A stretch of 64,000 nt of DNA from Escherichia phage mistaenkt (MN850587.1); one strand, 5' to 3'. Positions 50,277 through 52,961 are shown, counted from the first letter of the stretch. Translations and numbers: made by a program. Notes: generated by a model from the letters alone, not told the origin.

Positions 50277-50729
50277 TTAAATCAAATGTCTTGAGAATTG
50301 ACTATGGCAATTTGGACATAAGAACCTAAGATTCTCTTTTCTATCATCTAACCAGTTCTCGTTAATGTGGTCAACATCAAGAGTTAGAGGGTTACCCAAC
50401 CACTCCGGCAACTGACCGCATTTAGAGCATTTGTATTCGACACCAGAAGCTATTAAAGCCCTTCTTAGTTGTGAAGACCTCGCTCTTTCACCAGATTCAC
50501 GTAGAATCAAGATTTCTTCAGGCTTTCTTTTTGGTAGAGTTTTAATCTTACCAGCCTTTTGTCCAAGGAAATGAGAAGTGCCTATTTCAAACTTCTCTAT
50601 AACACGCTTCAGATGTGACTGAGAACCACCTGCTGGTTTTCTCCCAAGCTTGATAAGTACTTCTCTGAATGATACTGAATCCTTTACTAAAGGCTCAAGA
50701 ATCTCTTTAGTCAATCTGCTACGTGCCAT
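50277..50729 (-). CDS. HNH homing endonuclease
   Basis: 150 aa; C-terminal CSKCGQ...LDVDHINENWLDDRKENLRFLCPNCH (HNH with zinc-binding Cys pairs); inserted between tRNA genes. Confidence 0.7.
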   Translation of the reverse strand: MARSRLTKEILEPLVKDSVSFREVLIKLGRKPAGGSQSHLKRVIEKFEIGTSHFLGQKAGKIKTLPKRKPEEILILRESGERARSSQLRRALIASGVEYKCSKCGQLPEWLGNPLTLDVDHINENWLDDRKENLRFLCPNCHSQFSRHLI

Positions 50730-50985
50730 GTGTCAATCTCCCATTAAATCTTTGTAGAGAACTGCTAAGACGCCAAAGCAACAATGGTATCAAATGTCTT
50801 AACAATTCTCTAAAAAGACCTAACTGGTCTTTGCATAGTCTTGTTTAATCCGGTGACTAGAACCTTTGGAGAGCTTGATATTATCTCTTCTCCGTGACAC
50901 CTACTAGGTGCTTTACTGTGCGTGTACGACAATACACGAGGGAAAACCGAACGCTGTACCGAAGCGTGGGCTTAAATCTTATTAG

Positions 50986-51070
50986 GCGGTAGATAAAGGA
51001 GTCGAACCCTCACCGTATCACTACAATGGCAACTGTTTTCAAGACAGTTTGGCTTCCATTAGCCGCTACC
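50986..51070 (-). tRNA. tRNA-Ser (anticodon UGA), type II; CCA not fully encoded
   Basis: Perfect anticodon stem ACTGT/ACAGT with loop CTTGAAA, long variable arm with GTCAT/ATGAC stem, T-loop TTCGACT; acceptor pairs over 5 bp only in my fold. Confidence 0.55.
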
Positions 51071-51087
51071 TACCCCTAATAAGACTT

Positions 51088-51170
51088 TGGCATGGGACGG
51101 AGGATTCGAACCCCTTTGAAACGGTTTTGGAGGCCGTTGCTCATGCCTTAGAGTCTTAACATCGTCCCAT
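51088..51170 (-). tRNA. Atypical tRNA, probably tRNA-Trp (anticodon CCA), with enlarged D region
   Basis: Perfect 7-bp acceptor ATGGGAC/GTCCCAT, T-loop TTCGAAT, CCA, anticodon stem ACGG/CCGT with loop CTCCAAA; about 7 extra nt between acceptor and anticodon stem; 83 nt. Confidence 0.45.
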
Positions 51171-51312
51171 ACTACAATTCGAAGCTTACCGTATTATCTC
51201 AACACTGTAAAGCCCCTTCTCAGATTATTTACATGTTCTGGAAAACATGAGATACAGACCACCTCCCTACAGGAAGACCCGCTAAGGTCGTCTAAGTAAT
51301 CTGCTAACTATT

Positions 51313-51432
51313 TGGCAGTCAAGGTAGGAGTCGAACCTACTTACTCTCGAAGGTAGCTAACCTTCAGCAACTTTCCGACTTTCGTACATCTGTTAACATG
51401 TATTCAGATGGCTTACTAGTGTTGTCTTGACC
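51313..51432 (-). ncRNA. 120-nt tRNA-like gene: canonical acceptor stem, T-arm and CCA but non-canonical, enlarged internal region
   Basis: Acceptor GGTCAAG/CTTGACT, perfect T-arm GTAGG-TTCGACT-CCTAC, CCA; internal CATCTG-12 nt-CAGATG hairpin and GAAGGT-TAGCT-ACCTTC hairpin; no standard 7-nt anticodon loop found. Confidence 0.45.
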
Positions 51433-51439
51433 ATTAAAC

Positions 51440-51516
51440 TGGCACACCCTACAGGACTCGAACCTGTAACTCAGTGCTTAGAAGGCACTTGCTCTATCCA
51501 ATTGAACTAAGGGTGC
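51440..51516 (-). tRNA. tRNA-Arg (anticodon UCU)
   Basis: Acceptor GCACCCT/AGGGTGT, D-loop AATTGGATA, anticodon stem AGTGC/GCACT with loop CTTCTAA, T-loop TTCGAGT, CCA. Confidence 0.8.
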
Positions 51517-51748
51517 ATTAACATTTTAAAGGGTACTCATTGCATTTAAGCCAAGCCCCATACGGGATACCCTTTAGAATGTTGCCCACCTTATTAATCA
51601 TACCGTGGGCGAGTACGCCAAATTCTTTGATGAGGGGTTGGAAGACCTCACTGGTGTTTAGCCTATTAAGCTACTGCCAGAAAAACATTATCGTTTGCAT
51701 TTATTTTAGTTTGCAAAAATAGACGCTACGCTAACGAAAACTAAGGTT

Positions 51749-51777
51749 ACTATAAAGTTGTCACATCTGAATGTCAA
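51749..51777 (-). promoter_or_regulatory. Sigma70-like promoter on minus strand (TTGACA-N17-TATAGT) reading into the tRNA island
   Basis: -35 at 51772-51777 and -10 at 51749-51754 as reverse complement; overlaps one copy of the bipartite TTGTCA...TGTCAAC motif. Confidence 0.4.
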
Positions 51778-51792
51778 CAACTTTATTGAATT

Positions 51793-51867
51793 TGGTTGTA
51801 GGTGAGGGTATCGAACCCTCTTCTAACGGTTATCAGCCGTTTGCATTACCATTTATGCTAACCCACA
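51793..51867 (-). tRNA. tRNA-Ile (anticodon GAU)
   Basis: Acceptor TGTGGGT/ACCTACA, anticodon stem AACGG/CCGTT with loop CTGATAA, T-loop TTCGATA, CCA. Confidence 0.75.
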
Positions 51868-51869
51868 AT

Positions 51870-51946
51870 TGGAGGTTCAGGTGGGAATCGAACCCACATT
51901 CATAGGGCTTATGAAACCCTTGCATTACCTTATCTGCGACTGAACC
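51870..51946 (-). tRNA. tRNA-Met (anticodon CAU)
   Basis: Perfect acceptor GGTTCAG/CTGAACC, anticodon stem AGGGT/GCCCT with loop TTCATAA, T-loop TTCGATT, CCA. Confidence 0.75.
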
Positions 51947-51950
51947 ATAT

Positions 51951-52026
51951 TGGTAGGAGTGGAGGGATTCGAACCCGTCGCCTGTCAGATTAAAAGTCTG
52001 CCGCATCACCATTCTGCTACACTCCC
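51951..52026 (-). tRNA. tRNA-Lys (anticodon UUU)
   Basis: Acceptor GGGAGTG/CACTCCT, anticodon stem CAGA/TCTG with loop CTTTTAA, T-loop TTCGAAT, CCA. Confidence 0.75.
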
Positions 52027-52211
52027 ATTAAATCATCTTTGCAGTAACCTACGCAAACCTTGCTAAAGGGTTTGTAGAGTCATTTCCTATTAAGCTAATC
52101 TAGAATCATGCTAAGGAAATTCATCGGCACTCATGGGACGACATTTAGCTCCATAAGTCACTGCAAAGAGGATTACCAGACCGTTGTTTATCTTAAGTGC
52201 TCCCATTACAC

Positions 52212-52250
52212 CAACACGCCGTAACGTGTGAAGGAATCGAACCTTCGCCT
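52212..52250 (-). pseudogene. Possible tRNA remnant: isolated T-arm-like hairpin (GAAGG-TTCGATT-CCTTC) with adjacent ACACG/CGTGT hairpin, no acceptor stem or CCA
   Basis: T-loop consensus present but no complementary 5' acceptor strand within 120 nt. Confidence 0.25.
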
Positions 52251-52449
52251 TTTCTTTACCAGAGAAATAGATTGTTTTATACTTGCTGTAAACGGTCTTC
52301 TGTAAATTTGTTGAGCCAGACCAAGTTTTAAATTATTCAAATTAATTGGCTTGAAATTTTTAAGTTTGCTTGCTGAATTTGGTCTTCTGCTCCTTTAAAG
52401 AATACTCGTAAGAACTCTTTAAGGGAGGGGCTAAAAAGCCCTCTCAAAT

Positions 52450-52526
52450 TTGGCGAGGTATGCGAGAATCGAACTCGCGGCTCAGGAGAGACAGTCCCGT
52501 ATTTTGCCCATCTAAACTAATACCCC
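52450..52526 (-). tRNA. tRNA-Asp (anticodon GUC)
   Basis: Acceptor GGGGTAT/ATACCTC, anticodon stem CGGGA/TCCTG with loop CTGTCTC, T-arm GCGAG-TTCGATT-CTCGC, CCA. Confidence 0.7.
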
Positions 52527-52532
52527 AAAAAT

Positions 52533-52961
52533 CTATGTACCATTTCTTAGGTACTTCTCTTTACGCCTTGCTGGGTTGTAGTGCTTGCGCCCTTCTGCGT
52601 TTTTAGCAAGTCTGCAAGGTTCACACCTACAACCTCTTCTATAACCAGACACTGTGCCATGTTTAATTGGTGTGTATTTCCTATCACCAATCTGGGCTGG
52701 CCTAGTTGCTTTTGAGTTACATTGTATGTGGCTGTAAGATATATTGTCAAGTGAGAAGAAAAGCTCTTTTGCATCCTCTTCATGTCTCCAAGGAACTTTA
52801 TGTTCTATAGAGAAATCAACTCTGGACATTTCTTTTCCACAATGGTGACACTTATTCTGTCCAGTTTTACAAACCAAATCAAAGAGTAAATCTTTAACAA
52901 GCCTGTTCTGGGCTGTTCCTAAGCTCATACCAAGTTGTGACTTGTAAACTTCATTCTTCAT
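52533..52961 (-). CDS. HNH homing endonuclease with C-terminal Cys-rich zinc-binding tail
   Basis: 142 aa; CHHCGK...DFSIEHKVPW...NISYSHIQCNS (HNH); C-terminal GCRCEPCR; inserted between tRNA genes. Confidence 0.7.
   Translation of the reverse strand: MKNEVYKSQLGMSLGTAQNRLVKDLLFDLVCKTGQNKCHHCGKEMSRVDFSIEHKVPWRHEEDAKELFFSLDNISYSHIQCNSKATRPAQIGDRKYTPIKHGTVSGYRRGCRCEPCRLAKNAEGRKHYNPARRKEKYLRNGT

Follow-up and report, generated by a model that had tools for sequence, protein, structure and literature searches.

The stretch of DNA analysed here, referred to as the window, comprises 64,000 nucleotides (nt) of Escherichia phage mistaenkt (MN850587.1) and contains, between 47.4 and 53.6 kb, a dense cluster of transfer RNA (tRNA) genes on the minus strand, among which lie two free-standing genes for HNH endonucleases: HNH-1 (50277..50729; 150 amino acids, aa) and HNH-2 (52533..52961; 142 aa). 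All genes and sequence elements of the window given below lie on that strand. ARAGORN reports 24 tRNAs between 47417 and 53618, on the same strand as both open reading frames (ORFs), and the cluster holds at least 26 once two that this program missed are counted. Matches to the cluster identify the phage as a Suspvirus-like (Felix-O1-like) member of Ounavirinae: over 7 kb the cluster is 95-97% identical to that of Suspvirus SUSP2, phiSUSP1, PC79-13, EcSzw-2 and CHB7, and 86-89% identical to that of many Felixounavirus and Mooglevirus phages. The 355 phage records that match this 7-kb cluster form our comparison set. The original prediction, made from the bare sequence, had placed two HNH ORFs at 50277-50729 and 52533-52961 on the tRNA strand, and both were recovered at exactly these coordinates; it had also put them within 2-7 nt of the neighbouring tRNA ends, which holds roughly for the downstream side and fails for the upstream one. 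Downstream, the HNH-1 stop codon (50277-50279) lies 1 nt from the 5' end of tRNA-Leu(UAG) at 50275, and the HNH-2 stop codon (52533-52535) lies 6 nt from the 5' end of tRNA-Asp at 52526. Upstream, 255 nt separate tRNA-Ser(UGA) from the start of HNH-1, and 22 nt separate tRNA-Tyr(GUA) (52984-53071) from the start of HNH-2.

HNH-1 was assigned from its ORF and from Pfam and PHROG matches. It falls within the HNH superfamily by a curated sequence model, scoring 23.1 bits against the Pfam HNH family PF01844 (cut-off 21.4; residues 101-144), and it matches the PHROG family phrog_10822, named 'HNH endonuclease', with an E-value of 2e-65; a sequence search of the PDB yielded nothing beyond a marginal match to McrA. 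An alignment of 28 family sequences contains 34 invariant residues, including C101, C104, D120, H121, N133, C138, C141 and H142, with H121 as the presumed catalytic His. The structural model (predicted local distance difference test, pLDDT, 85.9) begins with a bundle of three helices, passes through a disordered linker and ends in an HNH domain with the pattern CxxC...DH...N...CxxCH.

For HNH-2, the assignment draws on its ORF, its PHROG matches and its predicted structure. Two PHROG families named 'HNH endonuclease' are matched (phrog_23251 at 3e-67 and phrog_338 at 8e-8), and a PF01844 match is precomputed for five relatives of the protein; a PDB sequence search produced spurious matches alone. 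An N-terminal helical region precedes the HNH core, in which the AlphaFold model (pLDDT 90.5) places strands at residues 50-54 and 74-78 followed by a helix at 79-86. Across the family C38, C41, H54, H78, C81 and N82 are invariant and N73 nearly so, and model and conservation together point to a beta-beta-alpha-metal fold with a conserved His (H54, the presumed catalytic residue) as general base, an Asn and Cys/His ligands for zinc. Almost all of the top 20 Foldseek matches to the model are HNH nucleases, among them the Gme HNH nickase 4h9d (probability 1.0), Cas9-HNH, Cap5 and ColE7/E9. The Cys-rich C-terminal sequence GCRCEPCR that had been predicted for this protein is present at aa 110-117, as part of a module of the form (H/C)GT-x3-Y-x2-3-GCRC-x2-C that occurs in about two thirds of the family, and twice in the member P0027; we regard it as a putative zinc- or DNA-binding module. 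Pairwise ratios of non-synonymous to synonymous substitution rates (dN/dS) are 0.02-0.15 for HNH-1 (dS up to 0.7) and 0.04-0.08 for HNH-2 (dS reaching values above 1); both genes are under strong purifying selection, and neither is a decaying pseudogene.

The junctions of HNH-1 are best understood from the two alleles of tRNA-Leu(UAG) found in these phages, Leu-A (starting GGGAGATTGA) and Leu-B (starting GCACCTATAG), which are unrelated and, at ~49-53% identity, effectively non-homologous. In the window, HNH-1 is followed by a complete Leu-B (50199..50275; ARAGORN; Rfam 54.1 bits) and preceded by a Leu-A remnant consisting of the first 11 nt of that gene, GGGAGATTGAC (50732..50742), in register with the intact Leu-A 5' end of SUSP2, CHB7, Andreotti and others. 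The order at the locus is the Leu-A stub, AC, the ATG, the ORF ending ...TTGATTTAA, one T and the complete Leu-B. At all six HNH-1-carrying loci examined, the usual upstream spacer (...AAAGATTTAAT) continues directly into the 11-nt stub, from which the ORF and Leu-B follow, and HNH-1 therefore sits inside a broken Leu-A gene. By the same junctions the stub, which ends 2 nt before the HNH-1 ATG, contributes the Shine-Dalgarno sequence, a GGAG located 8 nt ahead of that codon. Relative to SUSP2, which lacks both HNH genes, window positions 50204-50732 stand in place of 63 nt, with the breakpoint in the downstream tRNA, 5 nt short of its 3' end. The intact site of genomes without the nuclease gene is gone, Leu-A having been cut to 11 nt with Leu-B in its place.

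An 8-bp direct repeat, GATTTAAT, brackets the stub and the HNH-1 ORF: its upstream copy (50743..50750) is the spacer end that normally precedes tRNA-Leu in phages without HNH-1, and its downstream copy (50276..50283), directly next to Leu-B, includes the TAA stop of HNH-1. Loss of the DNA between these copies by deletion would yield exactly the HNH-less Leu-B allele of SPJ41, radambza and HK3, which could represent either a deletion product or the ancestral state. Separately, the fact that the 240-nt spacer upstream of tRNA-Leu ends in GATTTAAT, as the ORF does, raised the idea that it holds a relic of an older HNH-1-type gene. This candidate was ruled out; a tblastn search with 121 family proteins against five such 240-nt spacers gave a best E-value of 0.015 in a tiny search space.

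At the second site, phages without HNH-2 have tRNA-Tyr, 6 nt (AATAAA) and then the Asp-A allele of tRNA-Asp, starting GGTTATGTAG. Phages with HNH-2 have the CCA of tRNA-Tyr, a 22-nt leader (52962..52983 in the window, beginning directly after the tRNA-Tyr CCA end), the ORF, 6 nt and an unrelated tRNA-Asp allele, Asp-B, starting GGGGTATTAG. Homology with the HNH-less genomes returns at the CCA end of tRNA-Asp, and the exact borders of the cassette are the CCA ends of tRNA-Tyr and tRNA-Asp. Against SUSP2, window positions 52456-52982 replace 78 nt, and here too the breakpoint falls within the downstream tRNA, 5 nt from its 3' end. As at the first site, the intact sequence is gone: the tRNA-Asp(GUC) carried as cargo of the HNH-2 cassette (52451..52526; ARAGORN and Rfam) is the Asp-B allele, non-homologous to the usual Asp-A, in whose place it stands.

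Several further observations concern the parts of this cassette. No strong Shine-Dalgarno sequence precedes the HNH-2 start, and 52962-52975 of the leader encodes a 4-codon upstream ORF (ATG TTG ATA CTA TGA) with an ATGA overlap with the HNH-2 start; the sequence is consistent with low or coupled translation of HNH-2. The upstream tRNA-Tyr(GUA) was missed by ARAGORN and scores 22.8 bits in Rfam, below the gathering score, and is identical over the stretch compared to the tRNA-Tyr of CHB7, which is annotated by tRNAscan. The anticodon loop of Asp-B reads CUGUCUC, which puts a U at position 37; a pyrimidine occupies this position in all 7 Ounavirinae copies inspected (of 22 records), and Asp-A and the tRNA-Asp of the Vequintavirinae phage NINP13076 have the canonical A37. 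The anticodon stem of Asp-B is weak and its single-sequence minimum-energy fold is not a clean cloverleaf. Single-sequence folding of the four tRNA alleles gave z-scores of -1.3 to +0.1 and did not discriminate between them.

Both genes are sporadic in the comparison set. HNH-1 DNA occurs in 9 of the 355 records, at 100% identity in PC79-13, ~95% in pSJ21, ECML-1 and SP22, and ~89% in Michonne (2 records), Maleficent, EcSzw-2 and EcSzw_1; HNH-2 DNA occurs in 22. Each gene, when present, occupies the same site in every locus inspected, and presence or absence at a fixed position in otherwise collinear relatives thus holds for both. A comparison with relatives lacking the HNH genes had been proposed with the original prediction, which named a lack of such polymorphism, together with no detectable nuclease activity, as the result that would speak against mobility; the comparison was made, the polymorphism is evident, and the insertion points fall at or inside tRNA genes. 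Presence of the nuclease genes is further tied to the neighbouring tRNA allele. The records with Asp-B (at least 92% identity) and those with HNH-2 coincide completely (22/22), and Asp-A occurs in more than 200 records, none of which carries HNH-2. Likewise, all nine HNH-1-carrying records have Leu-B (itself in ~91 records at 90% identity or more), and none of the ~170 records with Leu-A, among them Felix O1, SUSP2, CHB7 and Andreotti, carries HNH-1.

Evidence of movement independent of the genomic backbone was seen for both genes. Against the Felixounavirus Andreotti, the HNH-2 cassette (~52430-52985) is 97-100% identical in 60-nt windows and 99.1% identical over the ORF, compared with 88.7% for the whole 7-kb cluster; just outside the cassette the figure is 20-63% on the upstream side, and ~250-400 nt downstream it is 43-72%. 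Because identity peaks at the cassette and drops on both sides, the comparison indicates recent lateral transfer of the leader, HNH-2 and Asp-B together. For HNH-1, the ORF alone is 84-92% identical to that of EcSzw-2 in a backbone that is mostly 95-100% identical, and PC79-13 shares with the window a 685-bp tract (50112-50796) without a mismatch.

The association of HNH-1 with tRNA-Leu extends far beyond Ounavirinae. More than 600 homologues of HNH-1 were found, many at 55-65% identity, and homologues of the two proteins also occur in Otagovirus, Vequintavirinae and Vibrio phages. The end of an HNH-1-type ORF abuts or overlaps tRNA-Leu(UAG) in the Pseudomonas phages PPSC2 and phiPsa347 (57% identity), in D69, a phage of Vibrio, and in six out of eight metagenomic contigs that had been picked on length alone; at one locus (L024) the tRNA-Leu(UAG) beside the HNH-1 relative is the sole tRNA within 1.5 kb, and in Agrobacterium phage Atu_ph07 (43% identity to HNH-1) the neighbouring tRNA-Leu(UAG) has the opposite orientation. 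We took a census of the family in IMG/VR, covering 70 distinct viral-contig loci, out of at least 518 matches there, and counting as neighbours tRNAs within 150 nt. A tRNA-Leu adjoins the gene on one or both sides in 43 of the 70 loci, and on both sides in nine of them; tRNA-Leu makes up 52 of 83 adjacent tRNAs against 35 of 145 non-adjacent ones at the same loci (Fisher p=1.8e-8). The tRNA-Leu genes beside HNH-1 relatives are very diverse (37-83% identity), and co-divergence of the nuclease with its neighbouring tRNA-Leu was a reading considered and set aside. In the metagenomic contig L071 two different Leu(UAG) alleles flank the HNH-1 relative, which is the window's arrangement in its complete form.

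Relatives of HNH-2 are also found beside tRNA genes in isolate phages, with a tRNA within ~95 nt downstream in all eight inspected. In NINP13076 a relative (40% identity) has tRNA-Asn on one side and, on the other, a tRNA-Asp with 84% identity to Asp-B, and a duplicated tRNA-Asn 3' end follows the ORF. In other isolate phages the relative stands ahead of a tRNA gene for Ile, Gln, Asn, Leu(CAA) or Arg.

Taken together, the sporadic distribution at fixed sites, the tRNA junctions, the linkage to divergent alleles, the near-identical copies in divergent backbones, the constraint on both proteins and the association of HNH-1 with tRNA-Leu make it quite likely that the two ORFs are homing endonuclease genes of the free-standing (intronless) HNH kind, which have tRNA genes as their targets and exchange these through co-conversion. 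The suggestion that the HNH genes are mobile elements of the tRNA cluster is thereby supported by polymorphism, by junctions at tRNA borders, by a near-identical HNH-2 cassette in a divergent backbone, by purifying selection and by the link between HNH-1 and tRNA-Leu. Shown by the genomes themselves are which genes are present and how they vary among relatives, where the junctions lie, the linkage of alleles, the lateral transfer, the purifying selection and, at the level of the family, the association with tRNAs. From them we infer cleavage, the identity of the targets, the immunity of the B alleles and super-Mendelian inheritance.

Under such a mechanism, each nuclease would cut a nuclease-less allele in or next to Leu-A (HNH-1) or Asp-A (HNH-2), and repair off the nuclease-carrying genome would bring in the nuclease gene with the adjacent divergent tRNA. 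The incoming B-type tRNA would displace the resident one, preserve isoacceptor function and presumably remain uncleaved, since its sequence is unrelated to that of the A allele. The first cassette would comprise HNH-1 and Leu-B and would have entered the Leu-A gene between nt 11 and 12, leaving a 5' stub that would now serve as the HNH-1 ribosome-binding site; Leu-A is the likely target. The second would comprise the 22-nt leader, HNH-2 and Asp-B and take the place of the 6-nt spacer and Asp-A, the likely target being the Tyr/Asp-A junction or Asp-A itself. Both ORFs would be embedded in a tRNA precursor transcript and freed from it by tRNA processing; this location probably shapes their expression, which is probably low.

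That homing genes reside in tRNA clusters is already established in T4 and T5. A functional parallel is SegB of T4: it homes in that phage's tRNA cluster, its recognition sequence is a T-psi-C motif of tRNA, its inheritance comes close to 100%, and it erases markers of the T2L tRNA region (PMC2330249). SegB shares with HNH-1 and HNH-2 a free-standing position between tRNA genes, absence from close relatives, an ORF within a tRNA precursor transcript and an association with tRNAs across phages (PMC2330249, PMC13096335); its recognition site within tRNA gene sequence and the carrying along of neighbouring tRNA genes liken it to the homing proposed here. However, SegB has a GIY-YIG fold rather than an HNH fold and no sequence relationship to either protein, and neither HNH-1 nor HNH-2 has a GIY-YIG match in Pfam or PHROG, so that the resemblance is functional and positional only. 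SegB, with its generic T-psi-C motif, favours no tRNA isotype, whereas the HNH-1 family has a tRNA-Leu bias, and unlike with SegB, the tRNA linked to the nuclease here is a replacement of the same isoacceptor by an allele without homology to the resident one.

HNH enzymes are known from the T5 tRNA region as well, namely F-TflI and F-TflII together with F-TflIV (hegA) of T5/BF23 (Akulenko et al. 2004, as cited in PMC2330249). Residues 79-148 of HNH-1 align with BF23 hegA/F-TflIV and T5 ORF070 at ~34% identity (E~1e-5), the HNH core being shared and the N-terminal domain not; HNH-1 has no full-length homology to F-TflI, F-TflII or F-TflIV, and HNH-2 gave no T5 or BF23 match among the 60 matches listed out of 87, a sample spread over the ranking. 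According to that citation, the T5 enzymes, from Demerecviridae, are characterised site-specific nucleases, whereas HNH-1 and HNH-2, from Ounavirinae, are known here from their genes. Mechanistically, the intronless homing described for T4 SegF/SegG and mobE, in which the nuclease-less allele of a neighbouring gene is cut, flanks are co-converted and the donor's divergent, presumably resistant allele replaces the recipient's (PMC2330249, PMC2790892), offers a model. As described there, these too are free-standing nuclease genes between conserved genes, but their targets are protein-coding (genes 56, 32 and nrdB), whereas here tRNA genes are replaced and the alleles are not detectably homologous.

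In Felix O1-like phages, 'HNH homing endonucleases' are already annotated (PMC8300805), and GenBank carries HNH (homing) endonuclease labels for the HNH-2 orthologues Andreotti gp95, BPS17W1, radambza gp51 and others, and for the HNH-1 orthologue Michonne gp88. In the available text of that Felixounavirus comparison no passage links its homing endonucleases to tRNA genes, and in that of a paper on the tRNAs of Sf14 endonucleases go unmentioned; to that extent, these two Ounavirinae papers do not describe where precisely the junctions fall, the use of a tRNA stub as ribosome-binding site, the swapping of tRNA alleles or the tRNA-Leu bias of the HNH-1 family.

This brings us to a number of points which weigh against homing, or against its simplest form. 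At the level of the proteins, HNH-2 has no Pfam or NCBIfam match at E<=0.1, and thus no curated HNH sequence model above threshold. Its best Foldseek E-value is no lower than 8e-3, and the top PDB matches of the HNH-1 model (McrA, Cap5 and Cas-HNH) have Foldseek E-values above 1e-3. At the level of the alleles, Leu-B without HNH-1 is common (~80 records), which makes Leu-B something other than obligate cargo of HNH-1; the order of events may have been either gain and subsequent loss of a cassette or insertion beside a pre-existing Leu-B. Furthermore, most HNH-1 relatives in other phages adjoin an intact Leu-A-like tRNA, which would leave immunity unexplained if the target lies inside it, so that a simple model with Leu-A as target and Leu-B as the immune allele may not be complete. 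The target sites themselves are predicted from junctions and linkage. The wider HNH-2 family offers less than that of HNH-1: in IMG/VR any adjacent tRNA was found in 29 of 71 viral-contig loci, with no dominant isotype. Isotype specificity of the whole family was dropped as a claim on the strength of this census, the tRNA link is limited to the Ounavirinae/NINP13076 subgroup, and the wider family is a generalist one. Lastly, tRNA alleles in this cluster also change with no nuclease gene beside them: Andreotti has a strongly divergent tRNA-Tyr allele (L003 5590-5674) upstream of the same HNH-2 cassette, and windows over tRNA-Thr (49850-49950) are 78-91% identical to PC79-13 and EcSzw-2 in a backbone that is mostly 95-100% identical. 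The cluster thus recombines at tRNA borders anyway, and general recombination there contributes to the observed pattern.

Such recombination could in principle be the whole explanation, with tRNA borders acting as a hot spot at which segments are shuffled and the HNH genes carried along passively, inactive or acting elsewhere. The non-homologous swaps at tRNA-Tyr and tRNA-Thr would fit, as would the presence or absence among relatives of a block made of a 70-aa ORF and tRNA-Arg(ACG), and the unrelated optional genes at other inter-tRNA sites. We nevertheless hold this to be unlikely: the low dN/dS and the invariant catalytic residues mark the proteins as being in use, the linkage of HNH-2 to Asp-B is complete, and shuffling within a single cluster does not predict that in phage groups unrelated to each other the HNH-1 family retains tRNA-Leu as its neighbour, even where the two stand isolated as a pair. 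A purely housekeeping role, in which the nucleases serve tRNA maturation or act, for example, as HNH partner of the nearby terminase and owe their position to co-expression, strikes us as very improbable. It would draw on the tight spacing, by which RNase P and 3' processing would set the mRNA ends, and on the terminase large-subunit gene just upstream of the cluster in relatives; but more than 90% of close relatives have the same tRNAs and terminase and lack both genes, which makes a processing or packaging role unlikely, and HNH domains of this kind are DNA nucleases, with McrA, Cas9-HNH and Cap5 as the best structural matches. The alternative attached to the original prediction, that the position of the genes reflects tRNA processing, is thus not needed to explain the data.

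A different possibility is that the cassettes are beneficial or partly domesticated, such that the cargo tRNA aids the phage, for example if Asp-B with its U37 or the unusual Leu-B resists host anticodon nucleases, or the nuclease promotes amplification or exchange of tRNA genes under host defence pressure, as SegB of T4/T6 does, with homing only part of the story. Precedent exists: through SegB, tRNA-Tyr is amplified and Septu escaped, and SegB is widely found alongside tRNAs (PMC13096335), and phage tRNAs with anticodon-loop changes are described as evading anticodon nucleases (PMC10264068). The pyrimidine at position 37 of Asp-B in the 7 loci inspected, set against A37 in Asp-A and the NINP13076 tRNA-Asp, might fit such a role, and by analogy a conditional benefit of the cargo tRNAs is possible. 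Against this, we know of no host nuclease that targets tRNA-Asp or tRNA-Leu(UAG) in these hosts, no tandem tRNA amplification is seen in the window, and cassettes present in just 22 and 9 of 355 relatives imply that any benefit is conditional; as an explanation of the locus we consider it quite unlikely. Intronless homing of both genes, with a contribution from general recombination, is the reading that we retain.

The cluster holds other features of a similar kind. In relatives, further optional nuclease genes occupy other inter-tRNA sites: a third HNH family, located for instance between tRNA-Thr and tRNA-Gly, is found in SP22 (L006 3040-3453 and 4836-5183), phiSUSP1 (L013 3627-4031) and S.Kent (L008 ~4350-4670), and a PD-(D/E)XK gene lies between tRNA-Leu(UAG) and tRNA-Ser(UGA) in CHB7 (L012 3806-4147) and SPJ41 (L009 3716-4186). 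The Ounavirinae tRNA cluster is thus a general hot spot for optional nuclease genes. Relics of these two families in the window were considered and rejected, only generic HNH-domain similarity to HNH-1 having been found. Within the window, a Cys-rich 70-aa ORF (49390-49602; phrog_10765) overlaps tRNA-Arg(ACG) (49364-49440); positions 49389-49608 have no counterpart in Andreotti, where tRNA-Arg(ACG) is likewise absent, and the two look like another unit of ORF and tRNA that is present or absent as a whole. A conserved DUF7338 gene (48787-49344) inside the cluster has a counterpart in an unrelated metagenomic contig of 72 kb (L028 2015-2575), where it immediately follows an HNH-1 homologue.

Among the tRNAs, the three tRNA-Leu genes (UAA, CAA and UAG; 48622-48700, 49619-49696 and 50199-50275) measure 77-79 nt, without the long variable arm that bacterial tRNA-Leu typically has, and Leu-A is likewise without it; HNH-1 relatives in the metagenomic contigs L071, L092 and L095 are also flanked by short variants of Leu(UAG). 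A further tRNA missed by ARAGORN (53463-53534; Rfam 53.7 bits) occupies the position of tRNA-Glu in relatives. A tRNA-like fragment (52230-52283; Rfam tRNA 31.3 bits over model positions 9-63 only), which may be the relic of a lost or disrupted tRNA, is found in the 424 nt that separate tRNA-Lys(UUU) from tRNA-Asp. As for transcription, sigma-70-like sites show no excess over shuffled sequence (7 against 6.1) and we do not claim dedicated promoters; two sites match 11 of 12 consensus positions, one inside the HNH-2 ORF (52750-52721; TTGACA-18-TACAAT) and one upstream of tRNA-Arg(UCU) (51777-51749).

The two cassettes offer a clean natural example in Ounavirinae in which junctions can be read to the nucleotide, a tRNA stub has been reused and a resident tRNA has been swapped for a non-homologous isoacceptor, and the preference of HNH-1 for tRNA-Leu provides a specific, testable prediction on target recognition. 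Such cassettes also account for part of the patchy tRNA and 'hypothetical protein' content that appears when genomes of these phages are compared. This touches on a group with practical interest, as Felix-O1-like Ounavirinae have been proposed for Salmonella control in food production (PMC8300805), and on a wider subject, a 2026 study having tied SegB to tRNA-based escape from host defence (PMC13096335). One could speculate, tentatively and with considerable doubt, that the HNH-1 family is a widespread homing lineage dedicated to tRNA-Leu, mostly tRNA-Leu(UAG), which travels as a two-gene cassette with its own divergent, cleavage-immune tRNA-Leu and drives tRNA allele turnover across distant phage groups, with HNH-2 and Asp-B as a second example. 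If this were true, the replacement tRNAs (Asp-B with U37, the short-arm Leu variants) might also be selected for escaping host defences that target tRNAs, which would make a selfish cassette conditionally useful. More broadly, the locus suggests that selfish nucleases are one engine of phage tRNA-gene diversity.

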